In this document: piece by piece, positions 1 through 25,029 of the stretch
How the letters are laid out: every line of letters starts with the position of its first letter
Numbering within the stretch: position 1 is the stretch's first letter
Source of the DNA: a virus
Lineage: Duplodnaviria > Caudoviricetes
Length of the DNA: 54,371 bases
IMG/VR virus record: IMGVR_UViG_3300043758_000010
Coordinates: 1-54,371 of that record
Reading direction: 5' to 3' (one strand)
Made by a program: the position numbers and the translations under genes
Notes under the pieces: model-generated
Told to the model about the DNA's origin: nothing
Database searches by the model: none
Seen by the model: the letters and a program-made list of their open reading frames with translations, nothing else

Positions 1-71
1 GGGGGGGGGGGGCAGGGGGGGGTGGGTGGGGGGGGGGGGCGGGGGGGGGGGGGCGCCCCCCCCACGGGTGG

Positions 72-299
72 TTACTTGCTGGAGACGTCGTTGACGGCGT
101 CGCTGGCCGTGCGAACGCCGGCGCCCATGACCTCCTGCACCTTGGCGACTCCGGTGGCTCCCCAGGGGGTGGCGACGAGGAGGATCCAGAAGAGGCTGAC
201 GGCAAGGAACTCTCGGCGCTTGAAGCCGGGGTCCTTCTTCATCCAGTACCCGAGGGCTCCGGCGACGAGGAGAAACAGGGCAGTGGTGGTGAGGGTCAT
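72..299 (-). CDS. Small two-TM membrane protein, candidate Spd-like (spread) protein
   Basis: 75 aa with two hydrophobic segments; start overlaps the traB stop (ATGA). Confidence 0.6.
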   Translation of the reverse strand: MTLTTTALFLLVAGALGYWMKKDPGFKRREFLAVSLFWILLVATPWGATGVAKVQEVMGAGVRTASDAVNDVSSK

Positions 300-2848
300 G
301 ACGCGCTCCTGGTGTCTACGAGGGGGCTTTCGAGGGGGGCGGCGGTGTGCCAGTCACGCTCGACCTTGCGGAGCTTGTCGAGGCGCTGCAGGCGAGCGGT
401 GGCGTTGGCGACGTTGGTGGGCTTGAGACCGGTTACGTCAGAGATGGCTTTGTTGCGGCGGGCGCCGTCGTCCACTGCGCGCCAGACAAGCTGTGAGCGC
501 GTGAGCGGCACCAGCTCATCGAGGTCTTCGTCGTCGACGTCGGCGGCCGTGGCGGACGCCAGGTCAATAACCGTCTTCCGCACGGCCGGCTTGCCTGTGG
601 CGAGCTCTCGCAGAAAGGCCTCTTCGTCTGCGGCGTCGAGGTGCCGGTACTCGTCGCGCCGGAGGTAGGCGATGCCCGCAGCGTCGCCTTCGGCGCTGGT
701 CAGCGTCTCCAGAGGGAACTGGCGGCTGACGCGGGCCGGATTGGTGTGGAAGGCGGCCCTCGACTGGGTGTACTGGTCCTTGCCGTCGGCGATGTAGAAG
801 ACGCCGCCGGTTTCGGAGCCGTCGGGGAACCGTTCGGGGAGCGGTTCGAGGCGGAATTTGGGGGTGCGGGAGCCGAGGCTCATGACGTCGACGTCGGCTC
901 GGGCGGTCCTGAACAGGGCGATGTTCCCGGACTGGAGCATGTCGCGGATCGCGCTGGCGCTGTTGTCGGATCCGAGGGAGTCCAGGTTGGGGATCTGGAC
1001 CCAGATGCGTGCGGCGATCCCGGCGGCGCGGGAGAGCCGGCCGACGCTGGAGACCGATCGCAGGAGCGGCTTAACGTGGTCCGCCTGTGGGTCCTTGAGG
1101 ATCATCTCGTTGAATTCGTCCCAGGTGACCACCATCGGGGCGAACGGCTCCCCGGGGACGAAGAAGGACCGGCCGTTCTCGGTGTAGCCCTCGGCGTCGA
1201 GCCACCGCATGGTCATCTGCTGGGCGTAGCGGTACTCGCTGACGCGGTTGGCGGCCTGGCCCATGACCATCGCTCCGTAGGCGGACTTCACGATCCAGTC
1301 GATGTCGTTCGTCCAGGGGGCGTATCCGGCGCCGCCCTTGCCGTCGGCCAGCCAGGAGACGAACCCGTTCGCGCGCTGGGCGATCTGCAGGTCTTCCTCA
1401 AGGCTGGTCTTGCCGGCGCCGGTGGCTCCGGAACCGAAGGCGTGGACGGCGCTGGCTGAGGGGCGACCGGACAGGCCGCGGCGCTTGGGGTCGAACTTGA
1501 GCAGCCGCCATCGGGTGGGGTTGCCGTAGATGTCCCTGCCGACGGTGATGTAGCCCTGGTCGTCCATGAGGAGGCCGTCCAGGTCCAGGGGCACGCCTGA
1601 CTGGAGGGGGTTGGTGGTCATCTCGTTGACTTCGATGCGTCGGGCGTCGAGGACGCGGAGGTGGAGTCGGGAGGCTGCTCCTTCGCCCTTCAGGTCGAGG
1701 GCCTGGGCGATGCTGCCGGCCTGGACGTCGGCGACGCCGGATCCGCGGCGGGGCATCAGGAGCTTGAAGCGGCGCCCGTGCTGGGTGCGCTCGACGTCGT
1801 ACAGCTCGCTTCCGTTGTAGGGGTTGTACTCCTGCCAGACGGCCGGCAGGTCGTTCTCGTCCAGCTCTCCGGCCGCGACGGCCCGCAGGCGGACGGTGAG
1901 CTTGGCCCGGGTCGCGGCCATGTCGTCGGGCCGGTAGATGTTGACGGCCCGCGGCGGGACCTCAAATGCGATCGAGATGGCGTCCTGGCCGACGCTGAGG
2001 GCCGGCTTGGCGGTGGTGGAGACGATGACGGCGGTGAGCCTGTCGTCGTCCAGGTGCAGGCCGACGAGGCGCGAATCCGGCAGGGGTCCGCGGTCGCAGG
2101 CGATCCACTCATTCCAGCGGGCGAGGTACCAGTCGATACCGACGGGCGGAGCCTGCTCTAGGGCAGCGGCGGGGGCCGGCTTGGCCCACACCCAGGCGCC
2201 CCAGGTAGCCGCGACAGAGCCAACGAGGAGGTGTGCCCACCAGGGCATTTCCAGGTAGCCGGTGGCCGGGATGACGGCGGCCGGCCCGGCACGAAGCGCC
2301 ATCTCGGCCGGGGTGTAGCGCCGCCACCAGCCGGTACCCCAGTCGGGCAGGGCCTTCTGCCATGCGTTGCGCAGGAGCCGGCAGTGGGTGCGGTGGGCCT
2401 CGGCGGTCGCCTTGCGGACCAGGGCGGGACGGTCAGCTTGCCCGTACCAGCCGGCCGCCACGGTCAGGGTGGGCGTCAGCAGGCCGTCCTTGCCGACGTT
2501 CATCTGAGGGGTAGGGGTGCTGGCGAGGCGGCGACGCATGCGCCGCACGGTGCGCCGGTAGCGGCGACCGCTGGCGCGGCACATCCACTCCCACGGCTCC
2601 CCCTGACCGGGCAGCCAGCGCCACGGGCCGGGGTTCACCCCGAGCGCGGCCCAGCCAGCGGCGGCGCCGATGCCAGCAGCGGTGGCGGCGAGAAGAGGGG
2701 TGCCGGACATCGCGGGCGCGGTCAGAGCCAGTCCGGCACCCAGGTACATGCCGGGGTTGCTGACGGCGCCGAGCTTGGCGCGTATCCCCGTCGGTGCCTG
2801 CGGGGTCTCTTTCTCGGTGGTCGGTTTGGGTACGGTCGCTGTCGCCAT
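296..2848 (-). CDS. traB: FtsK/SpoIIIE-like conjugative DNA translocase (TraB)
   Basis: Start reassigned to MATATVPK. N-terminal TM segments, Walker A GATGAGKT, DGKGG motif, Walker B VVTWDEF, SRAAGI arginine-finger region, C-terminal winged-helix-like segment (LVWRAVDDG...NVANATARLQRLDKL). Confidence 0.88.
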   Translation of the reverse strand: MATATVPKPTTEKETPQAPTGIRAKLGAVSNPGMYLGAGLALTAPAMSGTPLLAATAAGIGAAAGWAALGVNPGPWRWLPGQGEPWEWMCRASGRRYRRTVRRMRRRLASTPTPQMNVGKDGLLTPTLTVAAGWYGQADRPALVRKATAEAHRTHCRLLRNAWQKALPDWGTGWWRRYTPAEMALRAGPAAVIPATGYLEMPWWAHLLVGSVAATWGAWVWAKPAPAAALEQAPPVGIDWYLARWNEWIACDRGPLPDSRLVGLHLDDDRLTAVIVSTTAKPALSVGQDAISIAFEVPPRAVNIYRPDDMAATRAKLTVRLRAVAAGELDENDLPAVWQEYNPYNGSELYDVERTQHGRRFKLLMPRRGSGVADVQAGSIAQALDLKGEGAASRLHLRVLDARRIEVNEMTTNPLQSGVPLDLDGLLMDDQGYITVGRDIYGNPTRWRLLKFDPKRRGLSGRPSASAVHAFGSGATGAGKTSLEEDLQIAQRANGFVSWLADGKGGAGYAPWTNDIDWIVKSAYGAMVMGQAANRVSEYRYAQQMTMRWLDAEGYTENGRSFFVPGEPFAPMVVTWDEFNEMILKDPQADHVKPLLRSVSSVGRLSRAAGIAARIWVQIPNLDSLGSDNSASAIRDMLQSGNIALFRTARADVDVMSLGSRTPKFRLEPLPERFPDGSETGGVFYIADGKDQYTQSRAAFHTNPARVSRQFPLETLTSAEGDAAGIAYLRRDEYRHLDAADEEAFLRELATGKPAVRKTVIDLASATAADVDDEDLDELVPLTRSQLVWRAVDDGARRNKAISDVTGLKPTNVANATARLQRLDKLRKVERDWHTAAPLESPLVDTRSAS

Positions 2849-2918
2849 CGGGATTCTCCGGGTCTGCGGTGGTGGAGGGCGGGCCACGCCCATGGCCCGC
2901 CCTCGTGCTGTCGGTGGG

Positions 2919-3299
2919 TCAGCGACGCTGGTTGAAGACGGGTTCGGCCATCTGCACCGAGTGGGTGCGGTTGGCATCGGCCATCCGGCCGTGCTGGCCT
3001 TCCGTCTCGCCGGCCAGGCCCTGGGCTGCGGTGGCGAGGGCGTCGGAGGCGGAGACGATCGCGGCGACACTGCCCGCCATGGCGTGGGAGATCGTCGAGA
3101 TCTCCATGTAGGCCGTGGTCGTGGGTTCGTCGACACTCAGCACGGTCATGGCCTCGGACAGGTAGCGGGCGGATGCGGCCCGGTCCTCAAATCGGTCGTG
3201 CATACGCTCGACGGCCTGTCGGGTGCGGGTGGCGCGGATGCCGTAGGCGGCGGCCCGGGCCATGACGGCCGCGTAGGTGATGGTTGTCCCGATGGACAT
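2919..3299 (-). CDS. TraA-like helical transfer accessory protein
   Basis: 126 aa, Ala-rich helical, ends HGRMADAN...MAEPVF; directly upstream of traB. Confidence 0.55.
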   Translation of the reverse strand: MSIGTTITYAAVMARAAAYGIRATRTRQAVERMHDRFEDRAASARYLSEAMTVLSVDEPTTTAYMEISTISHAMAGSVAAIVSASDALATAAQGLAGETEGQHGRMADANRTHSVQMAEPVFNQRR

Positions 3300-3301
3300 G
3301 G

Positions 3302-4396
3302 TCAGGCTCCCTGAGTCTCGTAGACGTCAGCGTGGGCTGTGGTGTCCTCGGCATCGACGGCGTCGCTGACGTAGAAGGGCCGCTCGGCGACGGACTCCAT
3401 ATCGGCGGCGATCTCGGCGTACACGCCCTGGCCGGCCTCCAGGAGCTTCTTCGCCTTCACGACGGCCTCGTCCTGGGCGTAGGTGTGCTGCTTGAGGTGC
3501 TGCAGCTGGCTGTTGATCAGCTGGTACTGCTCCATGCAGCGAGCAACCCAGCCGATGACCCTCTCTCCGGCTCCGGCGTTGCGGAGGGCCGCGATGAGTT
3601 CGTCGGCGCGGCCGATCTCCCGCTCGCAGCGTTCCTGGAGGCGGTCGTAGACGGCGAGGTCGTCGTCGCACATGAGCGACAGCTCTTCGCTTTCGTCCCT
3701 GACGGATTCGTAGGTGACTTCGGAGGCCATGCGGCCGACTCCGTTCTCGCCTGGCTGGGTGGGGGTGGTTGTGACGTCCGGCTCGGGGCCGGGGGCCGCC
3801 GGCTCGCGGGGGGCGGGGACAGTGGCGGCGCCGGGAAGGTCGGCTGCTGTCTCCGGCTGGTTGGGGGCCGCCGGAGGGGGGCTGGCGACGGTCTTCTCCG
3901 GCTCTCGCTCCCCGGCCTCGGCTGCCTCGCTGCCGACGGGCTTGGAGAGCGTGACTCCGGCTTCAGCGCCCACGGGGGGCGCTTCGGTCGGCATCGGAGG
4001 GCTCACGGGCGGGGTGGTGATCGGCGCGGGGTCGGGAGCGCCCTCCGCCATGCGGCGGTTGCGGTACTCCTTCAGGGCCGAGCGGCCGGTGTCGCGGACC
4101 CAGTACACGCCCTTGGCCGCCCAGTTCCCCAGGTGGCGGCCGGCCGGGGTGGCGACTCGCTCCAGTGGGGTGTGGCCGCGGTAGCCGGCCCGGAAGGCTT
4201 CGGGGATCGTGATCGGATTCCCCTTGTCGTCCTTGGGGTTTTCGCCGTGCTTGTCGGCGATCTTCCGGACGGCCTTCTCGTGGCGGACCTGTTCGCGCCG
4301 TAAATCGCGCTCGGCCGGGCTGATACCCAGCCGCGCTTGCTCGCTCTGCGCTCCTGCAGCCCATGCCAGGAGGCAGGCGGCGATCAGAACTTCCAT
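3302..4396 (-). CDS. Transfer accessory protein (hydrophobic N-terminus, Pro-rich linker, helical C-terminal domain)
   Basis: 364 aa; RBS GAGAGGAAG; C-terminal AERPFY resembles the AEPVF end of the next gene; TTA codon at Leu32. Confidence 0.65.
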   Translation of the reverse strand: MEVLIAACLLAWAAGAQSEQARLGISPAERDLRREQVRHEKAVRKIADKHGENPKDDKGNPITIPEAFRAGYRGHTPLERVATPAGRHLGNWAAKGVYWVRDTGRSALKEYRNRRMAEGAPDPAPITTPPVSPPMPTEAPPVGAEAGVTLSKPVGSEAAEAGEREPEKTVASPPPAAPNQPETAADLPGAATVPAPREPAAPGPEPDVTTTPTQPGENGVGRMASEVTYESVRDESEELSLMCDDDLAVYDRLQERCEREIGRADELIAALRNAGAGERVIGWVARCMEQYQLINSQLQHLKQHTYAQDEAVVKAKKLLEAGQGVYAEIAADMESVAERPFYVSDAVDAEDTTAHADVYETQGA

Positions 4397-4429
4397 CGCT
4401 TCCTCTCACGTTCCGCGACGGGAGGGGGT

Positions 4430-4510
4430 GAACGAGCGTCTCGTGCGCGCACGTGCGCGCGTAGCACAAGAACGAGTTCACGTCTTCCCGGGTGAATGAA
4501 CGAGTGAATG
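4430..4510. promoter_or_regulatory. Repeat-rich intergenic region upstream of the tra genes
   Basis: GAACGAG at 4430, 4470 and 4498; GTGAATGA twice; palindromic GTGCGCGCAC. Confidence 0.4.
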
Positions 4511-4511
4511 A

Positions 4512-4700
4512 CTACTTTGCGTAGCGGTCGTGGATGGCCTGGAGGGCATCCGCGATCTCGCGCCAGGCGCGGTTCGCGACGACGGGGTCGAGTTCGCGAA
4601 GGGTTCCGCGAAGCCGGTCCATCCGGCGGACGGCGCCTTCCTTCGGGGACTTGGCGTCCCGTCGCTTGAGCTCCTTGGCCCAGTACGCGGATCCGCCCAT
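4512..4700 (-). CDS. Small basic helical hypothetical protein
   Basis: MGGSAYWAKELKRR..., 62 aa, preceded by GGAGG. Confidence 0.65.
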   Translation of the reverse strand: MGGSAYWAKELKRRDAKSPKEGAVRRMDRLRGTLRELDPVVANRAWREIADALQAIHDRYAK

Positions 4701-4882
4701 GATCGTCCTCCGTTTCCAGCTCTGAGGTGGAGGCCTTCCGGGTCTGCTTGCCGGGTCTGCGAGAGTTCCGCTCACCGGGGTCACTCGTCGTCTGGCCTGC
4801 GTTGTTGCGGTTTCGACTGCTCCGGCAGTCGCAGCAAGGTCCAGCGGCGGACCGCTGGGCCTCACTGGTGGTGCCGGAGATG

Positions 4883-5986
4883 TCAGGCGGGTACGGCTTC
4901 GGCTTCGCGGGTCTCGATCTCGCCCCAGATGCGCCGGATGCGCCCCTCGCGAGACTGGAAGCCGGCCTTACGGAAGGCGTCCTGCGCCTGCCGGTACGAG
5001 CGAGGCGGCTCCATCGTGTAGCGGAGCCAGCGAAGGACAACTTCGAGCTGCCCATCGGACAGGTGCATGCTCTTCTTGGGGGTCTCGACGCCAGCTGCCT
5101 GGGCGAGCTCCTCCAGGGTCATGGCGCCCTCGACGGGGACCTGCTGGACGTCCAAGTCCGCGTCCGATTCGTCCGGGGTCACGAGCTGGGTGGTCACACC
5201 CTCGATTTCCGGGATGACCTGTGTGACCACAGCGTGACCACCCAGCTCGGGCGAGGTGTGACCGTCGGCTGTGACCATCGGGCGTGACCCGACACTCAGG
5301 AGCTCCCGCTTCATGAAGGCAGCGGCTTTCGTGCCGTGCTTCTTGTCGGCCGCCTCCAGGGTCGCCTCGGCCTTCGCTCGGGCTGCATCGATCTCAGCCT
5401 GGGCCTTGGTCAGGACTTCAGCACGTGCGATTTGGCGGCGCAGTTCGGCGCGGTGCTCGGCAGTCTCGGCGAGGACTTCGGTGTGGGCTTCCGATTCCAG
5501 GTGCCGGGCGTGAGATGCGGCCAGGGCGCGGGCGTTGCGGTCCTCGGCGGAACGCTCGGCGATCTCGGCCGCCGTCGTAGGGTCCGCTAGGACGTTTCCG
5601 GCGAACAGTCGCAGCCCCATGAACAGCGCCGCGGCGGCCGGGACGCCGGCGAACACCTGGGCGTGCCCGAGCTTCCACAGGGTGTAGGTGGACGCCGCAA
5701 TGGCAATAGCCGTCAGGCTGAAAAAGACAGCCATGCCAACCGCCGACCGCAGGCGGATCGCAACCTCGGACATTCGCAGGGAGCCGATCCACAGGGCGTC
5801 GTAGACCAGGGCGATCGACCACGCGGCGATGGTGGCCAGGTCGCCGTGCAGGCCGAGCTTCTGGCCGAGCTGGCTTCCGACCGTGGCGGCGACGAGGACG
5901 AGGGCAGCGATGGTGAGGAACGTCTCGACAATGCCGAACGGGTTGAGGCGGCGAACGCGCGCCCACATCCTCTTGATGGTTTCCAT
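4883..5986 (-). CDS. SpdB-like integral membrane spread protein (about 4 TM, coiled coil, C-terminal putative HTH)
   Basis: Hydrophobic N-terminal half, Ala/Glu coiled coil, C-terminal SYRQAQDAFRKAGFQSREGRIRRIW; strong RBS AAGGAGG. Confidence 0.7.
   Translation of the reverse strand: METIKRMWARVRRLNPFGIVETFLTIAALVLVAATVGSQLGQKLGLHGDLATIAAWSIALVYDALWIGSLRMSEVAIRLRSAVGMAVFFSLTAIAIAASTYTLWKLGHAQVFAGVPAAAALFMGLRLFAGNVLADPTTAAEIAERSAEDRNARALAASHARHLESEAHTEVLAETAEHRAELRRQIARAEVLTKAQAEIDAARAKAEATLEAADKKHGTKAAAFMKRELLSVGSRPMVTADGHTSPELGGHAVVTQVIPEIEGVTTQLVTPDESDADLDVQQVPVEGAMTLEELAQAAGVETPKKSMHLSDGQLEVVLRWLRYTMEPPRSYRQAQDAFRKAGFQSREGRIRRIWGEIETREAEAVPA
5177..5289. repeat. GTGACC repeat cluster with a 16-bp inverted repeat; candidate clt/TRS locus
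   Basis: 8-mers ending GTGACC start at 5221, 5232, 5256, 5269, 5282; inverted GGTCAC at 5177 and 5192; inverted repeat 5182-5197/5234-5249. Confidence 0.6.
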
Positions 5987-6019
5987 GATTCCTCCTTGGC
6001 CTTCCGGCCGTCGCAGGGG

Positions 6020-6277
6020 TCAGGCAGCGGTCGGGAGGTCGGTGATGCCGAGCTCGTCCAGCAGCGGGCTGCAGTCCGGGTTCGCCTCGTCGTAGGCGCC
6101 AGCCTCCAGCCAGATGAACGCGGCCTCGTCCCAGTCCTTGGCAAGGACGGCCTCGAAGTAGCGCCGGACGACGCCCGCGCGGTACTCGTGCTCCATCCAG
6201 GCGGCCTCGATCTCGGACTCGGTGACCTCGATCTCGTTCTCGGTCGGCTGCTTGAGGGCGGTGACGGTGGCGTACAT
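6020..6277 (-). CDS. Acidic hypothetical protein
   Basis: MYATVTALKQ..., RBS AAGGA. Confidence 0.65.
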   Translation of the reverse strand: MYATVTALKQPTENEIEVTESEIEAAWMEHEYRAGVVRRYFEAVLAKDWDEAAFIWLEAGAYDEANPDCSPLLDELGITDLPTAA

Positions 6278-6344
6278 GACTGTGGTCCTTCCGTTGGTCA
6301 AGCGGGGTGAGGTGCAAGGTGAAGGGCGCGACTGCGGATGGCTC

Positions 6345-6551
6345 TTAAACCGCACGGCAGCCGCTGGCGTGCCGCTGCGCCCAGTCCTTGGCCGCGGCCT
6401 CGCGCACGTTGTAGGGGGCGTAGGTGGTGTTGCAGCCCCGGCAGATGGAGCTGTAGCCGCGCAGTTCGCGCACCACGTCGACAGTGAGTCGGTTGTTGCG
6501 CATCAGCGCGCCGGCCTGCGTCAGGTACCGGGCGATCGGGGTGGTGGCCAT
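6345..6551 (-). CDS. Small putative zinc-binding protein (paralog A)
   Basis: PIARYLT...CRGC...WAQRHASGCRAV. Confidence 0.7.
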   Translation of the reverse strand: MATTPIARYLTQAGALMRNNRLTVDVVRELRGYSSICRGCNTTYAPYNVREAAAKDWAQRHASGCRAV

Positions 6552-6566
6552 GAGAGTCTCCTTCGG

Positions 6567-6953
6567 TTAGCGGGTGATGACGGGCTTGGTCAGGTCACGG
6601 TGCTGGAGCTGGACCTGGAGGCCGCGGCGGGTGATGCGCCGGGCGAGGTAGTGGGCGAAGGTCGCACTCCTGTGCCTGCCTCCGACGCAGCCCACGGCGA
6701 TGGTGATCTGGCCGGCGGAGGGGCCCTGGCGGTAGGCGACGACCTGTCGGACGGTCGCCTTCATGAGCGGCCGGATGCCGGGAGTGCGGAGGACGGCCAC
6801 GCGGACAGGGCGGTCGGCTGCGGTCATGTAGCGGAGGCGCGGATCAACGTGCGGATCCTTGAAGGCGAAGCGGAGGTCGAGAGTGATCGTCGCCTCAGGT
6901 GGGGCGCCGTAGCCGTACCCGAAGGACACGACCACGACATCAACGCCGGTCAC
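6567..6953 (-). CDS. Stand-alone RapZ C-terminal domain protein
   Basis: SFGYGYGAP, DLR...DPH, IAVGCVGGRHRS and HRDL motifs typical of the RapZ/YvcJ C-terminal domain; no kinase domain. Confidence 0.85.
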   Translation of the reverse strand: MTGVDVVVVSFGYGYGAPPEATITLDLRFAFKDPHVDPRLRYMTAADRPVRVAVLRTPGIRPLMKATVRQVVAYRQGPSAGQITIAVGCVGGRHRSATFAHYLARRITRRGLQVQLQHRDLTKPVITR

Positions 6954-7153
6954 CGGACGGCCCGGCAGGCATTGGCGTGCTTCTCGGCCCACGCCGTGGC
7001 CCGGGGCGCGGAGTCCTCGGTGAGCCCGGCGCACCCATTGCAGGTCGCCCTGACCAGCCCGTTCGGACGGTCGGTGAGGTCGACGGTCAAGCTGCGATCC
7101 CCGGTGATCTCGCCGCCCTTGGTCAGGTAGCGAGTGATCGGCTTGTTGGACAC
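6950..7153 (-). CDS. Small putative zinc-binding protein (paralog B)
   Basis: PITRYLT...CNGC...WAEKHANACRAVR. Confidence 0.7.
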   Translation of the reverse strand: MSNKPITRYLTKGGEITGDRSLTVDLTDRPNGLVRATCNGCAGLTEDSAPRATAWAEKHANACRAVR

Positions 7154-7172
7154 GGGTTCTCCTTGGCGGTGG

Positions 7173-7358
7173 TCAGGCGGCGTGGTTGTTGAGGTAGGCG
7201 AGGATGTTCGCGGGGTGCAGGTCGGCGTTGTCGACGAGGGTGATCGCCTCGTCGTCGCCGGCGTCCAGGCCGTCGGCGATGGCGCGGAGGCCACGGGCCT
7301 GCTCCTTGAAGTCGAGCGGCCAGGGCGATGCGGGGACGGGGGACTTGAAGAGGGGCAT
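7173..7358 (-). CDS. Hypothetical protein
   Basis: 61 aa, RBS GAGGAG, in operon. Confidence 0.6.
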   Translation of the reverse strand: MPLFKSPVPASPWPLDFKEQARGLRAIADGLDAGDDEAITLVDNADLHPANILAYLNNHAA

Positions 7359-7375
7359 GCCGTACTCCTCTGTGG

Positions 7376-7579
7376 TCAGTGGTTGGCGTGGATGGTGTCG
7401 ATGAGCAGATCGGCCTGCTCGGCGGCAATGCCGTACACGGCCTGCAGCGCAGTCGACGGGACCTGGGCAGCCTTGGCGGCTTCCTGGCAGATGGTCATGG
7501 CAGCCGGGTAGGTCACGGCGGCGGTCTGCCGGTGCTCCCGGGCCTCAGCCCGGTACGCCTCCGGAGTCGCGTGCTGCAT
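7376..7579 (-). CDS. Hypothetical protein
   Basis: MQHATPEAY..., in operon. Confidence 0.55.
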   Translation of the reverse strand: MQHATPEAYRAEAREHRQTAAVTYPAAMTICQEAAKAAQVPSTALQAVYGIAAEQADLLIDTIHANH

Positions 7580-7586
7580 GACGGCC

Positions 7587-7748
7587 TCAGCCGCGGTTGG
7601 TGTGCGGGCCGGCGCCGGTCGCGGAACCCAGCTGGTCACGCTGCGCGCCCGCGCTGACGGCCGCCTGCTGCGGGGTCCGGTACTCGGCAGCGCAGGCCGC
7701 CGGGGTCGCCGGCTGGTCCACGATGGAGTGCTGCTGCTGGTCGGCCAT
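7587..7748 (-). CDS. Small hypothetical protein (53 aa; not in ORF track)
   Basis: MADQQQHSIVDQPATPAACAAEY...; TGATG coupling to upstream gene, GGAGG RBS. Confidence 0.5.
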   Translation of the reverse strand: MADQQQHSIVDQPATPAACAAEYRTPQQAAVSAGAQRDQLGSATGAGPHTNRG

Positions 7749-7999
7749 CACGGCCTCCCGAGCGGCTGCTCAGTGCCCGCGGCCGCCGTCTCGAAGGCGA
7801 TACGGGCCGCCTGCTGGTACTGCGGGAGAGAGATCGGCGCGATCCCCGGCTGAGCGAGGATCTGCACGATGCGGGCGACAATGCCGTCACCGCGGCACTC
7901 CTCAGCACGGGCGGTGCAAAGGCCGCCGGCCTCGAAGAACGCGATCCGCGCCCGGCGCATCTCGTCGCCCCAGTTCCAGGGCTGTTCGGCGACCATCAC
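7748..7999 (-). CDS. Hypothetical protein
   Basis: 83 aa, translationally coupled on both sides. Confidence 0.55.
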   Translation of the reverse strand: MMVAEQPWNWGDEMRRARIAFFEAGGLCTARAEECRGDGIVARIVQILAQPGIAPISLPQYQQAARIAFETAAAGTEQPLGRP

Positions 8000-8544
8000 G
8001 ACACCTCCGCCACGAGACGCAGCAGACCAGCCAGCTCACCGATCGACACCCTGGACAGCAGCCGCGCCACGGTGTCGACCGTGTCCGCGACCAGCACGTC
8101 CGCCTGCCGACGGGCCACGTACACGCGGTTCCTGGCCTCCGACAGACGACGCTCGGCGTCCTCACGGGCCTCGTGCGTGGCCTGCGACGGCTCCGCGAAC
8201 AGGATCCGATCACGCACACGCTCGGCAATCGTGGCGACCCGCTGCAGCGGGGCGAGACGCTCCGCGGCCGCCCGACGCAGGAAGAACCAGACGATTCGCT
8301 CGTCGGCCGGACGGTCGGCGGGGAGGGTCGAGGCCTCCGCGATAGCGGCCGCCGTGAACAGCAGGTCCTGCGCCGACGGAGCCAGCCGGCCGAAGCCGTG
8401 CCGCACCTCCAGCTGGGCCAGACGCTGCTGCGGGGACGGGATGGGCACGAACGGGCCGGAGCCGGTCTTGCGACCCGCAGCGACCAGACGGCGAGACGGG
8501 GTGGACTGCTCCGGCGCGCGCCGGGCTACAGTGATCTCAGCCAT
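7996..8544 (-). CDS. First gene of the leftward transfer-region operon, hypothetical
   Basis: Start MAEITVARR with GGGAG RBS. Confidence 0.55.
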   Translation of the reverse strand: MAEITVARRAPEQSTPSRRLVAAGRKTGSGPFVPIPSPQQRLAQLEVRHGFGRLAPSAQDLLFTAAAIAEASTLPADRPADERIVWFFLRRAAAERLAPLQRVATIAERVRDRILFAEPSQATHEAREDAERRLSEARNRVYVARRQADVLVADTVDTVARLLSRVSIGELAGLLRLVAEVS

Positions 8545-8680
8545 GAGGGTCTCCCTAAAGACGCTCTGGTTAGGCCCTGGCCTGGGAGTGGAGTCCCGGT
8601 GCTGGGGCCGTTCTGTTTTCGGTTGCGCTGTGCCGGTGGAGCGGCACGTTGAGGCTTTCAGCGGTGGAGCGCCGTTTGCT

Positions 8681-8763
8681 TCAACCCCATATTGAAGGCG
8701 CGGGAAGCGCCGTGTCAAGCACTCTCCGCAACTTCCCCAACACCGCCTCAACCGGGCATTGAA
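8681..8763. promoter_or_regulatory. Two operator-like palindromes TCAACC-N4-ATTGAA in a divergent promoter region
   Basis: TCAACCCCATATTGAA 8681-8696 and TCAACCGGGCATTGAA 8748-8763. Confidence 0.65.
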
Positions 8764-8793
8764 TCCGGACAGACGCACCCCTACCCTGACCCC

Positions 8794-9042
8794 ATGACCG
8801 ACGCCACCACCGCCGCGATCGAGGACGCCACTGCCGCAGTCGCCGCCATCGAAGACCCCGTCGCCCGCTTTGAAGCCGCACGCGCCGAGCGTGCCAAGTA
8901 CGCCGCCGGCGACCGGGCCATGCTCGCCCTCCAGCGCGAGGTCGTCCGCGCGCTTCACGAGCGCGATCGAAGCTGGGCGGAGGTCGGCAAGATGCTGGGG
9001 TTCAGCGGCTCGCGAGCGGAGGCCATCGCACGCGAGCGGTAG
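8794..9042 (+). CDS. Small HTH regulator (candidate Kor-like repressor)
   Basis: C-terminal RSWAEVGKMLGFSGSRAEAIAR HTH; divergent from the transfer operon. Confidence 0.75.
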   Translation: MTDATTAAIEDATAAVAAIEDPVARFEAARAERAKYAAGDRAMLALQREVVRALHERDRSWAEVGKMLGFSGSRAEAIARER

Positions 9043-9092
9043 GGATGTGATCGGCATGGTTCCAGTCAAGCCCGGCGATGACTGTCCGACGA

Positions 9093-9140
9093 TGCACTGC
9101 CGGTGCACCGGCAGTGCAGGGATCATGCAGTAGCTGTGCA
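9093..9140. promoter_or_regulatory. 26-bp perfect palindrome within an 11-bp-phased TGCA array
   Basis: TGCACTGCCGGTGCACCGGCAGTGCA 9093-9118; TGCA at 9093, 9104, 9115, 9126, 9137. Confidence 0.65.
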
Positions 9141-9173
9141 CGTGGCGGGACTTGAGCAGGTGGAGGCCTCAGC

Positions 9174-9809
9174 ATGGAAGTCGTCGAGTCCTGGACGGGC
9201 CGTATGGCCTGCTGGCTCCAGTCCTCACTCCGCCTCGGGAATCAGGCCTTTGCTGACCATCTCGGCGTGGCATTGAGGACGGTGGCCGGTTGGCACGCGC
9301 AGCCCGACCTGGTGCCTCGACACGACATCCAGTCCGCGCTCGACACCGTCTACGAGAAGGCTCCCGCTGCCGTGCATGCTCGCTTCGCGCGCTTCGCCGC
9401 CCAGGTCGAGGTTGCTACCGCTCAGGCCCTTCGGGTTGCCATCGCAGTGGTCGTAAAGACCGGCGAAGTCCTGCTCGTCTGCCGACGGGACGACGGCGCC
9501 CTTTCCTGGCAGTTCCCAGCAGGCGTCGTAAAGCCGGGTGGCGCCGCCGAGGTGGTAGCCGTCCGCGAGACGCTGGCGGAGACCGGCGTGCACTGCTCGG
9601 TCCGGGAACCGCTCGGGTCCCGCCAGCACCCGACGACGGGCGTCCTGGCCACGTACTGGCTGTGCGATCACCTCATGGGCGAGCCCGCGAACCTCGACCC
9701 AGCCGAAAACGCGGAGGCCGCTTTCGTGCCGGTCTCCGATCTGACCCGCTTCATCCCGGCCGCCCGGATCTACCGGCCGGTCCTTGACGCCCTGGGGGTA
9801 TTCGAATGA
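9174..9809 (+). CDS. XRE-like HTH fused to a Nudix domain
   Basis: N-terminal WTGR...FADHLGVALRTVAGW; Nudix box variant GVVKPGGAAEVVAVRETLAETG. Confidence 0.85.
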   Translation: MEVVESWTGRMACWLQSSLRLGNQAFADHLGVALRTVAGWHAQPDLVPRHDIQSALDTVYEKAPAAVHARFARFAAQVEVATAQALRVAIAVVVKTGEVLLVCRRDDGALSWQFPAGVVKPGGAAEVVAVRETLAETGVHCSVREPLGSRQHPTTGVLATYWLCDHLMGEPANLDPAENAEAAFVPVSDLTRFIPAARIYRPVLDALGVFE

Positions 9810-10228
9810 GCGAGACAACGACTGAGCAGGGAATCTCCACGGCGATCATCACGGACGCCGACCGTGTGCTGATGATCAGACGGCGGGAGCGGGAGGGCAA
9901 GCTGCTCTGGGCCTTTCCGGGCGGAGGCATCGAAGAGGGCGAGACGCCCGAGCAGGCCGCAGTGCGGGAGACCGCCGAAGAGGTGGACCTGGAGGTGAAG
10001 GCGGTCCGTTCTCTCGGTGAGCGGGTCCACCCGCAGACCGGCCGGCACATGTCCTACGTCGCCTGCGAGGTCGTGGGCGGCGAAGCCCGGGTCGCTGACG
10101 AGGAGGAGCTGGCCGAGCTCGCCTGGATCCGGTTGGAGGAGATCCCGAACTACGTGCCCTGGGGGCTCTTCGAGCCGGTGCAGGAGTACCTGGACGAGAT
10201 CCTCGCCAGCAATGGGGATGACGCCTGA
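9806..10228 (+). CDS. Nudix hydrolase (MutT-like)
   Basis: Near-canonical Nudix box GGGIEEGETPEQAAVRETAEEVDL. Confidence 0.92.
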   Translation: MSETTTEQGISTAIITDADRVLMIRRREREGKLLWAFPGGGIEEGETPEQAAVRETAEEVDLEVKAVRSLGERVHPQTGRHMSYVACEVVGGEARVADEEELAELAWIRLEEIPNYVPWGLFEPVQEYLDEILASNGDDA

Positions 10229-10242
10229 CCCCGCCCAGCAGT

Positions 10243-10271
10243 GAAGGCCCCCACCATCGGTGGGGGCCTTC
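10243..10271. terminator. Hairpin terminator between convergent genes
   Basis: 13-bp perfect stem GAAGGCCCCCACC/GGTGGGGGCCTTC. Confidence 0.8.
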
Positions 10272-10272
10272 G

Positions 10273-10902
10273 TCATGCCGCGTCTGCTTCGGTCCGCGGC
10301 GGCTGGAGCAGCTCAGCCCGGGTGTGCTGCCGGCCGCAGTGGAGGCAGCCGGCGCTGCCGTCGAAGAGCCCGTATCTGATCGCGTGCCCGCATTCGCGGC
10401 AGGTCCCGCGGACGGTGACGGGCGGCCGGCCGCCGTCGACGAGCGCGGCGCAGGTCCGCTGGATTTCACGTATCTCGCGGGCACATTCGTCCAGGGCCGG
10501 GTGTCGGGTGACGGCCTGCGGAAGGTTGAGTCGAAGGGTGGCGACGGCCTGGTCCACGCGGTGCTGGAGCCGGCCGCCGGTGCCGGTGGCGGCGAGTCCG
10601 TAGGTGGCCCAGTCGGCGACCCAGGCCTCCAGTGTGGAGACGATGCCACCGTCGGCGGTGAGGTCGAGCACGGTGAGGTCGGCGGGGATGGGTGCTCCGC
10701 CGCTGCTGCCGCTGACGCGGGTGCCGGGGGTGCGGGCGCCGGGTTCGATGCGGAGGCAGAGGCGGGCGTAGAGACCGCGGGGGCCGGCGAGGGCGGCGAG
10801 GTGGTCGTCGAGGCGGCGCTGGCAGGGCTTGCATGTGTACCGGCCGAGCTCGTCTTCCCACAGCTCTCTCGCGCAGATGGCACAGTTCGGGGACTCGTTC
10901 AC
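10273..10902 (-). CDS. Cys-rich protein at the end of the early operon (possible late-gene regulator)
   Basis: Four CxxC motifs; position typical of late activators (inference). Confidence 0.6.
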   Translation of the reverse strand: MNESPNCAICARELWEDELGRYTCKPCQRRLDDHLAALAGPRGLYARLCLRIEPGARTPGTRVSGSSGGAPIPADLTVLDLTADGGIVSTLEAWVADWATYGLAATGTGGRLQHRVDQAVATLRLNLPQAVTRHPALDECAREIREIQRTCAALVDGGRPPVTVRGTCRECGHAIRYGLFDGSAGCLHCGRQHTRAELLQPPRTEADAA

Positions 10903-10932
10903 GGTGGCTCCTCGTGCGGCGGTGCGGGCGGG

Positions 10933-11235
10933 TCAGGTGGTGGTCGGGTCGGTGGCGGCGAGCTCCTTGATCACCTGCCGCTTGATCTGGTGCCGGATGC
11001 GGCTGGCCTCGTCGAGGTACGACCGGGCCGCCTGGCGGCTGTCGATGTCAGCGGCCCTACGGTGGAGCTCGTCGAGCTGCTGCTCGATGGCTGCGTCCCG
11101 GCTGATGTGGTGCTCGGTCCACCACAGGACACGGGCGGCGTAGGTGGGCTGTCGGCCGCCGAGGTGCGTGTCGTGGTCGACCAGCCGGTGGGGGCAGTCA
11201 CGGGCGATGGCGTCGCGGAGCGGGTCGCCGGTCAC
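10933..11235 (-). CDS. Hypothetical protein
   Basis: Coupled ORF in early operon. Confidence 0.6.
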   Translation of the reverse strand: MTGDPLRDAIARDCPHRLVDHDTHLGGRQPTYAARVLWWTEHHISRDAAIEQQLDELHRRAADIDSRQAARSYLDEASRIRHQIKRQVIKELAATDPTTT

Positions 11236-11540
11236 TTGCGTTCCTCGCTGCGGCAGCGGGGGCGAAGAAGCCGGACGGCTTCGCGGAGGCCCGTGGCGAC
11301 GCCGGACATCGAGATGGCCCCCTCCTGGGTCCGGTATGTCGTGCCCTCGATCCGCGCGGCTTCGGAGATGAGAGTGTCGAGACTGCGGTTGAGAGCGTCG
11401 TCGGACGCGGCGAGGACGGCGTCCACGACGGCGTCCACGACGGCGGCTTGCCCGTCGACCGGCAGCCAGTAGCCGCCGGCGTTGAGGGCCTGGGCTGCGG
11501 CGTCGAGGGCGCGGTCGCGGGTGGTGGGCTGACTGGTCAC
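11232..11540 (-). CDS. Hypothetical protein
   Basis: GTG start, VTSQPTTRDRAL; coupled. Confidence 0.6.
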   Translation of the reverse strand: MTSQPTTRDRALDAAAQALNAGGYWLPVDGQAAVVDAVVDAVLAASDDALNRSLDTLISEAARIEGTTYRTQEGAISMSGVATGLREAVRLLRPRCRSEERK

Positions 11541-11791
11541 GGCCGGTCCTCCGGGTGCGGGTGGGGCGGGATGGGGAGCCGCGGCGGCAGCCCCTTGAGG
11601 GCGCACTCGGGGCAGGGTCGGCTGTCGGTCTGGCCGGTGCCGTGGCAGTGGGCGCAGGCGAGCTGGTGCAGGTCGGGCCGGTCGCAGCAGGTGCTGAACC
11701 CCCCGTGGCGGGTCGACTCGGTCTCGTCGGAGGCGGGGCAGTAGTAGACGCTCGCGCCGGGCAGGCAATCGTGGGCGGGCTGCCTGGTCAC
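11537..11791 (-). CDS. Cys-rich small protein
   Basis: YYCP...HGGFSTCCD plus CAHCHGTG and CPEC. Confidence 0.6.
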   Translation of the reverse strand: MTRQPAHDCLPGASVYYCPASDETESTRHGGFSTCCDRPDLHQLACAHCHGTGQTDSRPCPECALKGLPPRLPIPPHPHPEDRP

Positions 11792-12048
11792 TGGCCCTCC
11801 TCCAGGACGTAGCCGGTGCGGCGGGGCTGGCCGTCGCCCGTGGTGGCGGTGGCGTGGAGCTGGCTCGCCTCGATGGAGCGGCGGCGCACCTCGCGGCCGG
11901 TTCGGGTCAGGGTGACGACGTCGACCTTCCCGTAGCCCCAGACGCCGGGAATGGTGATCGGGGTGCCGATGACCTTGATGCGGGTCGGGCCGTCGACCGG
12001 GTGGTGGCGGTTGCTGAGGCTGCGATAGATCTGGCCGGGCTTGATCAC
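11788..12048 (-). CDS. Small beta-rich protein (PGQIY type)
   Basis: VIKPGQIYRS...RRTGYVLE. Confidence 0.65.
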   Translation of the reverse strand: MIKPGQIYRSLSNRHHPVDGPTRIKVIGTPITIPGVWGYGKVDVVTLTRTGREVRRRSIEASQLHATATTGDGQPRRTGYVLEEGQ

Positions 12049-12263
12049 AGGTACCTCCGGGGTGGGGTGATGGTGGTGATGTGGATGTCGTCGCCGCCGG
12101 GTGTCCACAGCCTCCCGCTGCCGACCGCCCGGCCGGCTTCGGGTTCGACCCGGCGTTCGCGGAGTTCCCGGAGCCGGTCGGCGGCGTTGGTGCGGGGGCG
12201 CGGTGCCGGGTCTGCCGAGTGGCAGGGCTCCGGCGCCCACAGGGGCAGCTGGTCGGCGGTCAC
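12045..12263 (-). CDS. Hypothetical protein
   Basis: GTG start, coupled. Confidence 0.45.
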   Translation of the reverse strand: MTADQLPLWAPEPCHSADPAPRPRTNAADRLRELRERRVEPEAGRAVGSGRLWTPGGDDIHITTITPPRRYL

Positions 12264-12583
12264 GGAGTGGGGTCCTCGGCGGGGTCGAGGGCGGCTCGGA
12301 CGTGGCGCAGGCAGGTCAGGTAGCCGCCCGCAAGGTCCGGGTCCGTCGCGTTGGCCCTCACTGCGGCCTCGATGCGGTCGCACTCGGCGCGGACGCGGGC
12401 CAGTACGGCTTCGGCTTCGTCGCGCTGACGGCGGAGAGCGCGGATGACGCCCACGCTCTCGGCCAGCTCGGCTTCGGCCTGCTTGGCTCGCTGTTCGGCG
12501 GACGGGGGCTCGGCCTGCCGCTGTTCGCGTTCGTCTGCTGCGCGGCGTGCGGCGCCGATCGGGCCGGGCGGGTAGTCGGTCAT
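12260..12583 (-). CDS. Coiled-coil hypothetical protein
   Basis: AEQRAKQAEAEL...AEAVLARVRAEC. Confidence 0.6.
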   Translation of the reverse strand: MTDYPPGPIGAARRAADEREQRQAEPPSAEQRAKQAEAELAESVGVIRALRRQRDEAEAVLARVRAECDRIEAAVRANATDPDLAGGYLTCLRHVRAALDPAEDPTP

Positions 12584-12975
12584 GGGCGGGCCTCCTCAAC
12601 GGCGGGCGTGTGGGCCTCGTGCTGCGGGCAGTCCCGGTAGTGCCCGGCCGGGACGAAGGCGGGGCCGGCCGAACCGCAGGTGCACTGCGCGGGCGCGGGC
12701 TGCGTTCCGGCCTCCTCGGCGGCGCGGACCTGGTCGGCGAGTTCGTGTGCGGCGTCCTGATCGCCAGCAGCGGCGCGGACTGCGAGGGGCAGTTCCGTCC
12801 ACACGCCGCCCATCCACTCCATGGCCCACTCGTCGCCGCCTGAGCGGGCGCGTTCCATGTCCTCGTGGATGAAGTGCAGGGCGTCGATGAGGGGCTGCTG
12901 AAGCGACTTGAGTTCCTTGATGGCGGCCATCAGGGCGGGGACAGCTTCGGCGGCTGTTGCGTGCGAGAGGGTCAC
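12580..12975 (-). CDS. Hypothetical protein
   Basis: 131 aa, RBS AAGGA. Confidence 0.6.
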   Translation of the reverse strand: MTLSHATAAEAVPALMAAIKELKSLQQPLIDALHFIHEDMERARSGGDEWAMEWMGGVWTELPLAVRAAAGDQDAAHELADQVRAAEEAGTQPAPAQCTCGSAGPAFVPAGHYRDCPQHEAHTPAVEEARP

Positions 12976-13033
12976 GGCAAGTCCTTCCGAGGTTGGGCCG
13001 CCCGCGGTGGTGCGGGCGGCCGAGGGTGGCGGA

Positions 13034-13273
13034 TCAGATGGCGGGCTGCTCGACGGTGAAGCTGATGACGATCGACTCGTCGGTAGTGGTGAACATCAGC
13101 GCATCGTCCGGGAGGGCCACGGCATCGCTGAGGTTGAAGTAGTGCCGGTAGTCCTGGGCGGCGGCGCCGATGGCTGCCTCCATGTCGCCGAGGCAGGCGC
13201 CGCGCAAGTAGGTGGTCGGGATGATCCACTCGCGTCGGGTGCTGGTGATCGTGCGATGGCTGTAGGTGGCCAC
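13034..13273 (-). CDS. Hypothetical protein
   Basis: 79 aa, RBS AAGGAGG. Confidence 0.65.
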   Translation of the reverse strand: MATYSHRTITSTRREWIIPTTYLRGACLGDMEAAIGAAAQDYRHYFNLSDAVALPDDALMFTTTDESIVISFTVEQPAI

Positions 13274-13399
13274 GGGTCCTCCTTGTGCATGTGCGGGTGG
13301 GTTGTTCCGGCGGATCGTTCAGCGGCCTCTGTGAGCCCCTGTCAGGCACCCCGCCTCACTGGGAGGTCGGGGCGCCCTCCGAGAGCCTCAGGCGGGCTC

Positions 13400-13672
13400 T
13401 CAGGCGGTCTGGCGGGGCTGCGGCGGGTCCAGCGGGCGGACCGCCTCCCCTGGAACCAGGCCGGCGGTCAGCGCGATGGCGACTGCGTGAGTCCGGTTCG
13501 CCGCACCGAGGTTGGGGCGAATGAAGGACCGCCACCGCTCATGGATCCCGTACAGGCTGATCCCGGTGGCCTTGCTGATCTCGACATCGGTAGCGCCGTT
13601 CACCGCCAGGCGGACGATCTCGAGGTCTCGAGGAGACAGCCACGGCTGCACCGGCCGGGCGGGCGCGGTCAC
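13400..13672 (-). CDS. LuxR-type C-terminal HTH protein
   Basis: LSPRDLEIVRLAVNGATDVEIS...LGAANRTHAVAIALTAGLV. Confidence 0.85.
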   Translation of the reverse strand: MTAPARPVQPWLSPRDLEIVRLAVNGATDVEISKATGISLYGIHERWRSFIRPNLGAANRTHAVAIALTAGLVPGEAVRPLDPPQPRQTA

Positions 13673-13875
13673 GACTCGGCCCCTTCGCGGCAGTCGCCCC
13701 AGAAGACGCCGTAGCCGTAGTCGTCGGTGTGGGTGTCGCAGCCGTCACCCATCGGCAGGTCGAGGCAGACCCAGAATTCGCCGGTCGGCTGGTGGCGGGG
13801 GTGGTAGCCGTCGGTGCCGTGGGGGCAGTCGCCGGTACCGGTTTCGGCGTAGTACGGGATCGGGCGGTGGGTCAT
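13669..13875 (-). CDS. Small Cys/His protein
   Basis: 68 aa, RBS GGAG. Confidence 0.55.
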   Translation of the reverse strand: MTHRPIPYYAETGTGDCPHGTDGYHPRHQPTGEFWVCLDLPMGDGCDTHTDDYGYGVFWGDCREGAES

Positions 13876-13944
13876 CGGGGTTCTCCGTTCGTGAGAGGCT
13901 CGGTGGGCGCCCGCCCCGCTTCCCTCGGGGCGGGCGTCCTGCTG

Positions 13945-14139: not shown

Positions 14140-14181
14140 GTGGTGGCCTTTCGGGTAAGGGTTCGGGCGGGCGTCCTGCTG

Positions 14182-18861: not shown

Positions 18862-18897
18862 GGCGTCTTCTCTCTGGCTGGCTGGTGCGGGTAGGGG

Positions 18898-25028: not shown

Positions 25029-25029
25029 G

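Follow-up and report, generated by a model that had tools for sequence, protein, structure and literature searches.

A probable plasmid-type DNA transfer cassette in an integrative temperate siphophage lineage presumed to live in Streptomyces

[quoted passage not shown] Whether a temperate phage can own such a machinery is the question raised by the virus record IMGVR_UViG_3300043758_000010 of IMG/VR, which we analysed as one whole stretch of 54,371 nucleotides (nt), called the window below. Its block 72-10271 lies in the last 10 kb of the record as the phage is read, beyond the early operon and, if the record closes into a circle, right before the small terminase gene terS. With a probability that we put at roughly 0.55, this block is a working Streptomyces plasmid-type cassette for dsDNA transfer and spreading that is now part of an integrative temperate siphophage lineage. 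Homology to plasmid transfer (tra) genes, linkage to phage genes, purifying selection, a conserved repeat array and the literature together lead to this reading, which is built on sequence comparison throughout.

The core of the cassette consists of the following features (lengths in amino acids, aa; TM, transmembrane):

72-299, - strand: g1, 75 aa, one predicted TM helix, last gene of the cassette
296-2848, - strand: translocase, 850 aa, predicted membrane anchor, FtsK/SpoIIIE-like P-loop ATPase and C-terminal winged helix
2858-2867, - strand: a single GCAGACCCGG just upstream of the translocase start, overlapping its ribosome-binding site
2919-3299, - strand: g3, 126 aa, small gene ahead of the translocase, compared by phmmer
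3302-4396, - strand: g4, 364 aa, a hydrophobic N-terminus joined by a proline-rich linker to a helical domain at the C-terminus
4512-4700, - strand: 62-aa open reading frame (ORF) between the repeat array and g4, read from the sequence
4735-4835, - strand: candidate clt or operator, a hairpin followed by direct repeats with a 12-13-nt period and the core GACCCGG
4883-5986, - strand: g5, 367 aa, four N-terminal TM helices, coiled-coil region, C-terminal domain

Transcription on the - strand runs through six small ORFs, g5, the array, the 62-aa ORF, g4, g3, the 850-aa ORF and g1. Fifteen ORFs of the block and the adjacent g14 were scanned against Pfam, PHROGs and NCBIfam, and the ORFs 8794-9042 and 7996-8547 against Pfam only. 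Among the 16 ORFs and three libraries, a Pfam family was reached at E<=0.01 only by an ORF with a RapZ C-terminal (RapZ-C) domain and by two NUDIX ORFs. No integrase, RepSA/RepAM/prim-pol or Par family was matched in any of these block ORFs, in line with the initial annotation of this DNA, which was made from the letters alone and had seen no second integrase or replicase in the block.

The 850-aa protein carries the motifs of a P-loop ATPase (Walker A GSGATGAGKT, Walker B VVTWDEF), which are invariant in all 25 members of its family, and a crude hydropathy scan finds one hydrophobic segment near its N-terminus (residues 53-71, score 1.54 against a threshold of 1.5). Its sequence alone reached TcpA of pCW3 at E 0.048, and a profile of the 25 family members reached it at E 3.8e-5. 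This profile retrieved 249 representatives at E<=1e-3 among 1.84 billion proteins, and 66 of the 105 full-length distant relatives picked from 150 listed ones were scanned further: PF01580 (FtsK_SpoIIIE) was matched at E<=1e-3 by 31 of the 66 (16 of them reaching the gathering score), a winged helix-turn-helix (wHTH) or FtsK-gamma domain (MarR_2, HTH_20, FtsK_gamma or similar) was detected at the C-terminus of 15, and 28 had no family match. Once broadened by nine distant relatives, the profile matched EssC (4nh0, E 1.4e-10), TcpA (1.7e-8) and FtsK (2iuu, 2e-7), and also EccC5 and HerA, and its C-terminal positions 758-816 matched MarR-type winged-helix regulators (E 5.8e-4). The predicted architecture is thus a membrane anchor, an FtsK-like motor and a winged helix, the same that is described for TraB in PMC4447253 and PMC3583192. 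These results bear out the initial annotation, which had called the protein an FtsK-like ATPase with membrane segments and a C-terminal wHTH-like segment and had asked for a profile comparison with FtsK and TraB-type proteins; the proteins reached were TcpA, EssC, FtsK and TraA of plasmid SCP2.

Among the ORFs of three plasmid loci, the family profile scored 114.5 bits against a 768-aa protein of pSV2 (about 25-27% identity in the ATPase part), 38.7 bits against pSLE1's transfer protein (774 aa) and 36.7 bits (E 1.6e-10) against SCP2 TraA, the 'major plasmid transfer protein'. Searching plasmids by tblastn gave 109 records with relatives of the translocase (104 from Streptomyces, 5 from Kitasatospora). 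Near-full-length copies with 64-72% identity lie on eight Streptomyces plasmids of 155-290 kb, and the other matches, at 24-30% identity, carry annotations such as 'transfer protein', 'type IV secretory system conjugative DNA transfer family protein' and 'DNA translocase FtsK', or are wHTH proteins. PF01580, on which AICE surveys rely, is not matched by the 850-aa protein itself, and precomputed Pfam domains are lacking in all of 115 close homologues, so that Tra surveys relying on PF01580 would miss this subfamily. Two side observations concern these plasmids. On NZ_CP013744.1 (L002), a full FtsK homologue with four TM helices and alpha, motor and gamma domains (23931-26327) lies 1.4 kb downstream of the cassette, in addition to the cassette translocase. 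On SCP2 (L031, 16943-19254), the 768-aa pSV2 protein is matched in its N-terminal part by traX and in its C-terminal part by traA, two annotated genes that may be a single one.

The partner genes point to the same plasmids. In weak phmmer matches, g3 resembles the small 'conjugal transfer protein TraB' of pSV2 (23.8 bits), TraB of SCP2 (16.8) and a 127-aa gene of pSLE1 (12.2), and these small genes directly precede the translocases of the three plasmids. No named family was found for g4 in the Pfam, PHROG or NCBIfam scans; the earlier label of 'two helical TraA-like genes' flanking the ATPase is therefore a misnomer for both g3 and g4. The small TM protein of the initial annotation corresponds to g1. 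Four hydrophobic segments lie within residues 18-129 of g5, and SpdB2 is described with four TM helices. The orthologue of g5 on plasmid L001 reaches DUF2637 with 22.1 bits (E 1.5e-4; cut-off 22.8), a family to which SCP2.27c and the upstream membrane protein of pSV2 belong, and g5 thus appears to resemble the SpdB/DUF2637 proteins. At the place of the 62-aa ORF, small genes are annotated on plasmids L001 and L002.

We found the cassette in 4 IMG/VR loci and 17 genome loci. Together with plasmids L001 and L002, these form a set of 23 loci; counting matches over 30% or more of the query, all 23 have g3, 22 have g1 (after the translocase), 21 have g4 and 9 have g5. On the large plasmids, the order of g1 to g5 is retained, and a GntR regulator diverges about 5 kb upstream. 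Five carriers are phage-like, namely the window, contig C8 of genome G005, and the IMG/VR records G004, G003 and G002. The first of these relatives, G005:C8, is a circular contig of a cultured strain (63,512 nt, with a 44-nt end overlap) that encodes an integrase (74%), the cassette, HNH, terS (74%), the large terminase terL (92%), portal and tail genes. G004 (61.8 kb, estimated 99% complete) has a translocase of 83%, a holin of 96% and an endolysin of 81% identity, with tail genes and RecT too, but other head genes than the window; G003 is a 70-kb provirus with the cassette, and G002 (92,199 nt, with a 129-nt terminal repeat) carries it as well. Tail, lysis or early genes are common to the window and G002, G003 and G004. 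As an observation apart, G002 shares tail genes and a DNA invertase with the window, is 38 kb larger and may be a phage-plasmid-like relative. A translocase tree of 23 rows, in which L004-L006 and L010 were replaced by whole contigs and the partial L014 was left out, groups the window with G004 and G003 (support 100/99) and C8 with G002 and L003 (96/96); on this tree, the cassette may have a single origin in phages.

Comparison of the loci also brought the repeat array to light, and it did so alone: a screen for exact 8-10-mers (at least four copies per 400 nt) and a general repeat search revealed no clt. The array is non-coding and lies between g5 and the 62-aa ORF. Perfect copies of GCAGACCCGG occupy 4738-4747 and 4751-4760, 13 nt apart, and the exact sequence occurs only four times in the window (4738, 4751, 2858 and 12206), always on the - strand. 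A copy at the same relative place as the one at 2858 is found in C8 and L011. At the same relative place as the array and on the coding strand, CAGACCCGG is present in 15 of 21 loci of the module, phage-borne and plasmid-borne, with up to three perfect copies per locus and degenerate ones beside them, and the array accompanies the cassette in all five phage-linked copies. Known clt sites are described as direct and inverted repeats, and TraB as reading 8-bp repeats through its wHTH. A separate stretch upstream of g4 (4397-4511) holds three copies of ACTCGTTCA and the palindrome GCGCGCACGTGCGCGC and may be a promoter or operator within the cassette.

At its far end, the block carries two genes in the opposite orientation:

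9174-9809, + strand: Nudix gene 1, Pfam NUDIX E 8.9e-16 over residues 87-205, the first ~80 aa lying outside the match
9806-10228, + strand: Nudix gene 2, Pfam NUDIX E 1.3e-23, overlapping Nudix gene 1

If the block works as we think, the 850-aa translocase would assemble in the membrane once free double-stranded phage DNA is present, after excision or during early replication. Its C-terminal winged helix would bind the repeats with the GACCCGG core at about 4735-4835, acting as clt, and the motor would pump the DNA through septal cross-walls and hyphal contacts, with the SpdB/DUF2637-like g5 and with g4, g3 and g1 assisting passage through the envelope. The divergent Nudix pair may, like Pif of pSAM2, block transfer between cells that already carry the element. 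The phage genome would in this way spread without virions or receptors, besides lysogeny and infection.

The genome around the block is that of a phage. Gene calling by third-position GC content (GC3) gave 71 genes in the window, the majority on the - strand, and PHROG scans covering 44 of its ORFs identified a head and packaging set (terS, terL, portal, protease, major head protein, head-tail connector proteins), a tail and lysis set (major tail protein, chaperone, tape measure, tail proteins, endolysin, holin) as well as a DNA invertase, a repressor, a tyrosine integrase, RecT, WhiB and HNH. In the early region, Pfam matches further identify a C5 methylase, DUF5131 and zinc-binding proteins of phage type. 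With virion, lysis, repressor and integrase genes all present, the window is a complete temperate siphophage read on the - strand, with terS at the start and the 72-10271 block at the far end; the placement of the cassette inside such a phage, between the early operon and terS, is as the initial annotation had it. The landmarks are:

53874-54296, - strand: terS, phrog_83 E 3.6e-32, at the other end of the record from the cassette
52160-53821, - strand: terL, phrog_9 E 7.3e-145
26132-27445, + strand: tyrosine integrase, phrog_1 E 1.7e-34
27483-27538, + strand: attP core, unsplit, directly 3' of the integrase gene

Isolated phages are distant: the nearest by DNA are 29 records, each covering at most 3% of a 24-kb query in short pieces, and the best terL matches are to Gordonia and Arthrobacter phages, at up to 62% identity. 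No tRNA genes were found in the window.

We compared 3.9 kb around the integrase with 151 Streptomyces genomes. Matches were obtained in 119 of them (including G135, which is flagged unpublished and supports none of our claims), most of the listed ones at 80-91% over about 27483-27538 and stopping at 27538. The core is not a tRNA; it matches a sequence conserved in most of the Streptomyces genomes searched and has the look of the 3' end of a protein-coding gene of the host. Genome G005 holds an attB-like copy on C162:276014-276088, its phage relative C8 being a separate circular contig. In the prophage G073:C26 29082-88815, the core is duplicated at both ends, the halves lying 59.7 kb apart, which agrees with the earlier view of an attP left unsplit in the middle of the window.

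The same prophage shows what else can occupy the position of the cassette. It runs colinear with the window, at 97% identity for the integrase, 82% for the major head protein and 69% for terL, and between terS and the homologue of g14 it has another cassette in place of the window's, whose translocase family was not found in G073, G030 or G029 with the window query. This cassette encodes a 669-aa FtsK-like protein (FtsK 2iuu in the PDB at E 2.4e-4; PF01580 at 15.9 bits, below threshold; hhalign against the window's translocase family, E 1.3e-3), a coiled-coil protein of 419 aa, smaller ORFs (171 aa, 155 aa and below) and a divergent protein with a UTRA domain, which we take to be the effector domain typical of GntR-family regulators. 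The proposal to look for traB between attL and attR of related prophages thus turned up a TraB-like/Spd/GntR cassette of another sequence family. A third cassette fills the slot in NZ_CP108596.1, a circular 51.8-kb 'plasmid' of Streptomyces sp. NBC_01177 that is a phage of the same kind (terL 73%). One of its proteins is a clear DUF2637 member (E 1.5e-37). Another, 701 aa long and with P-loop motifs, lies beyond the reach of our profiles (hhalign to the translocase family is weak, at E 0.021), has no PDB sequence match and is a putative translocase by its P-loop motifs and position only. As judged from sequence, nearly identical phages hold different cassettes in the transfer slot, and the fact that three different cassettes at one locus all come with a translocase and membrane partners argues for selection for function in the phage. 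We suggest, tentatively and with rather less than even confidence, that this lineage keeps a 'transfer slot' between early operon and terS, in which at least three unrelated-looking cassettes have been exchanged with giant plasmids, and that travel of naked dsDNA within the mycelium and from strain to strain, independent of virions and receptors, is its normal third route.

Transfer between cells is not the only function that such genes could have. The cassette might act only inside the mycelium of a lysogen, passing free or replicating phage DNA across cross-walls or sporulation septa, in the manner of FtsK with the chromosome, and so serving inheritance or the spread of an infection rather than transfer to other strains. 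The relatives G005:C8 and NZ_CP108596.1 do appear as separate circular replicons in isolate assemblies, the former in a genome that also holds the attB-like site on C162, and an aid to segregation would be useful to an element in which no ParA or ParB match was seen among the scanned ORFs. Thoma et al. also proposed a spreading of phage DNA for phage SpdB2 homologues. Yet the closest characterised homologues, SCP2 TraA and, via pSLE1, the pZL12-type locus, are conjugal transfer genes: PMC3583192 gives the major tra gene as needed for SCP2 transfer, and the major tra gene together with adjacent genes as needed for conjugal transfer of pZL12. A Pif-like Nudix pair, moreover, makes most sense with transfer between cells. 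We consider a purely mycelial role unlikely, even if plasmids use the same TraB for spreading and transfer, which makes the two hard to separate.

The cassette might instead be cargo that does not move the phage, mobilising the chromosome or resident plasmids, or serving the lysogen in exclusion or defence. Its Nudix operon forms a transcription unit of its own that points the other way, as in morons, and the type of cassette is swapped between close relatives, as accessory genes are. Against this stand the five phage-linked copies, in every one of which the phage DNA itself carries the likely recognition site, and the retention of translocase and membrane partners by all three cassettes of the slot. 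A role as cargo is thus distinctly improbable.

That phage and large plasmid once recombined and left the cassette behind as inert DNA is an explanation to which we give little credit. What speaks for it is that the nearest full-length homologues lie on plasmids of 155-290 kb, and that these plasmids share the DUF5131, RapZ-C, WhiB and Nudix gene families with the phage. However, all five cassette genes are intact in the five phage-linked copies although their proteins have diverged by 20-50%, the Walker motifs have not changed in any family member, and the ratios of nonsynonymous to synonymous substitution (dN/dS), computed between phage-borne copies, are low: 0.26-0.34 for the translocase (4/4 comparisons), 0.12-0.34 for g3 (four), 0.22-0.35 for g4 (three) and 0.36-0.41 for g5 (four). 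For g1, they span 0.17-0.95 (four comparisons, 0.95 in one of them). The values of the translocase are similar to those of two tail genes (0.19-0.52, six comparisons), and terL gave 0.11 in its one comparison. The cassette genes are, by these estimates, under purifying selection.

Finally, a plasmid fragment misjoined to a phage contig near 10.2 kb is hardly credible, although the record is from a soil metagenome and its two ends do not overlap, because the cassette is linked to phage genes in four other contigs from other sources, the composition is even across the junction (63-75% GC along the whole window) and a second assembly, from the likely source run (soil metagenome X1), gave a single 54,315-nt contig of even depth 22.6 that spans the junction without a difference over 71-20000, albeit from the same reads and hence not independently. 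Two other soil runs, X2 and X3, held short exact pieces of the window only.

Several observations weigh against a working transfer cassette of the plasmid type. The 850-aa protein has no Pfam match even at E<=10 and none in NCBIfam or PHROGs, and its subfamily is without a characterised member, every named homologue being a 'hypothetical protein'. No relative of the translocase was found by tblastn in 50,697 phage records, so that no virion-proven phage is known to carry it, and a megablast of window positions 1-10300 against phages gave no match. The SpdB-like membrane protein of the initial annotation has its four TM helices, but g5 itself has no match to DUF2637 (PF10935) even at E<=10. Its clt-like repeats stand as a conserved array that fits the description of clt but could equally be an operator; the array lies 1.9 kb upstream of the translocase gene and not at its 3' end, where clt is described in pWTY27. 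The window shows no enrichment of the motif when one mismatch is allowed (21 copies against 14.7 +/- 3.8 expected), and the argument for clt therefore rests on conserved position and not on count. No GntR-type TraR/KorA regulator lies beside the window's cassette. The translocase tree shows no significant clustering of the phage label (in 500 shuffles, 180 scored as low). Lastly, it is the relatives, and they only, that point to Streptomyces as the probable host, the record being a metagenome contig.

The remainder of the block and the end of the record contain the following features:

6020-6301, 6345-6551, 6567-7034, 7173-7358, 7376-7579 and 7996-8547, - strand: six co-directional ORFs, called by GC3
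6567-7034, - strand: among these six, the ORF with the RapZ C-terminal domain, the only one with a family (PF22740 E 6.5e-27, phrog_18111 E 7.4e-43)
8794-9042, + strand: divergent small ORF, 82 aa, with a C-terminus that looks like a helix-turn-helix (HTH) by eye
9093-9118, no strand: perfect 26-nt palindrome ahead of the Nudix genes
1-70, no strand given: array of C/G tracts at the record end, with a G8-CG-C8 hairpin just 3' of g1

A divergent HTH gene with operators had been predicted here. The ORF 8794-9042 and the palindrome are both in place, but the HTH is seen by eye and the ORF has no Pfam match at E<=1e-3. A half-site related to the palindrome is present at 8631-8646, and two copies of CGGTGGAGCG are found, at 8634 and 8662. 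The two Nudix genes, also predicted, are clear from their Pfam matches; their homologues in L013 have 60-63% identity and lie 8 kb upstream of the cassette. The RapZ-C protein of the cassette operon is a stand-alone one, with a homologue of 34% identity on NZ_CP013744.1 (L002, 37154-37561). Both the record and the second assembly stop at the same C/G tract. Relatives have ordinary genes at the place of these 1-70 G/C homopolymer tracts, which they lack, and the array may be a genuine structure of the end, a tract that resists assembly or an artefact of the library. Elsewhere in the window, a DUF5131 (Gp37/Gp68) protein of 411 aa (15918-17153, - strand) matches 229 profile positions over its residues 2-386, which implies an insertion of roughly 150 aa, and a serine DNA invertase (31704-32273, - strand, Resolvase E 3.3e-43) is located between the lysis region and the immunity region and is kept in G002 at 75% identity.

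Should the cassette work, transmission would bypass adsorption, receptors and the compartments made by cross-walls, which would change the view of phage spread, lysogeny and phage defence in mycelial bacteria and blur the line between prophages, AICEs and plasmids. Should the slot be what we suggest, conjugation-like spread would be routine in these phages and not an oddity of pZL12. Our analysis supplies three cultured carriers (the strains of G005 and G073, and Streptomyces sp. NBC_01177), a candidate recognition site and a previously unnamed translocase subfamily.

Among known systems, the transfer modules of plasmids come first. SCP2 (traB, traX/traA, SCP2.27c) and pSV2 have, like the window, a small TraB-like gene directly ahead of an anchored FtsK-like wHTH translocase, and their DUF2637-type membrane protein lies upstream, as g5 does; unlike them, the window has no GntR regulator next to its cassette and is a phage rather than a plasmid. 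The TraB-clt-Spd systems of pSVH1, pIJ101 and pSG5 share with it an anchor, a translocase, a wHTH, short direct repeats and a Spd partner with four TM helices, a likeness of described architecture that extends to the mechanism proposed for them, and the core of the window's repeats may resemble the 8-bp motif of pSVH1; the window's array differs from theirs in not lying at the 3' end of the translocase gene. AICEs such as pSAM2 have, as described in PMC2440964, an integrase with attP directly downstream, Tra, one or more Nudix genes like pif and an HTH regulator, all of which find a counterpart in the window; Pif is given there as the Nudix immunity factor of pSAM2, and most AICEs as encoding a Nudix protein. 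The window differs from AICEs in lacking a match to a RepSA, RepAM or Prim-pol initiator and a GntR-type KorSA among the ORFs scanned, and its complete virion and lysis set makes it a phage and not an AICE.

Other phages hold parts of such a system. Thoma et al. 2015 list SpdB2 homologues in phiC31 and VWB and propose the spreading of phage DNA as their role. We confirmed a DUF2637 gene in the isolated actinophages VWB (gp24) and Gilgamesh (4 records, 2 phages). VWB, a temperate Streptomyces phage, resembles the window in having a Spd-type membrane protein between early genes and terminase. When 91 query proteins (71 window genes and 20 cassette proteins) were compared with the 18.6-kb stretch around gp24, matches were confined to two early genes of the window and the three DUF2637 proteins, with none among the translocases queried; two of these translocases had no match in any actinophage record. 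Phages of the VWB type thus appear, from these comparisons, to have the helper without the pump. FtsK-like genes are on record for the lytic Streptomyces phages Geonosis, Mandalore, Naboo, Jaresh and AndoPrime, where the authors, in three papers, list them as replication or host-like genes and mention neither conjugation nor TraB nor Spd partners. The literature searched contained no description of a Tra translocase cassette in an integrative Streptomyces phage.

The nearest parallel is the plasmid prophage type. The plasmid-phage pZL12 of Streptomyces sp. 9R-2 (Zhong et al. 2010, J Bacteriol) is the experimental precedent. It reportedly has both a plaque and a plasmid cycle. PMC4487206 describes pSLE1 of S. 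leeuwenhoekii as homologous and syntenic to pZL12. Like the window, pZL12 and pSLE1 unite a Streptomyces tra locus with a full set of virion genes on a single replicon. The pSLE1 genes follow each other as a GntR regulator, small genes, a 594-aa, a 127-aa and the 774-aa translocase gene, with the terminase genes directly downstream, and in the window, too, the translocase adjoins the terminase genes and lies upstream of them. The two translocases are related at the profile level (the 38.7 bits given above) and belong to different subfamilies; pSLE1 has 86 kb and ParA/ParB genes, whereas the window has 54 kb, an integrase with a chromosomal attB and no Par or Rep match in the ORFs scanned. Phages of the window's kind also have an integrated close relative, G073:C26, unlike the plasmid prophage state of the pZL12 type. 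The idea of transfer is itself not new, given the precedent of pZL12 and the phage SpdB2 homologues in print. What is new relative to pZL12 is an integrative element free of Par or Rep matches, with an unnamed translocase subfamily that is common to giant plasmids and with a slot in which cassettes can be swapped.

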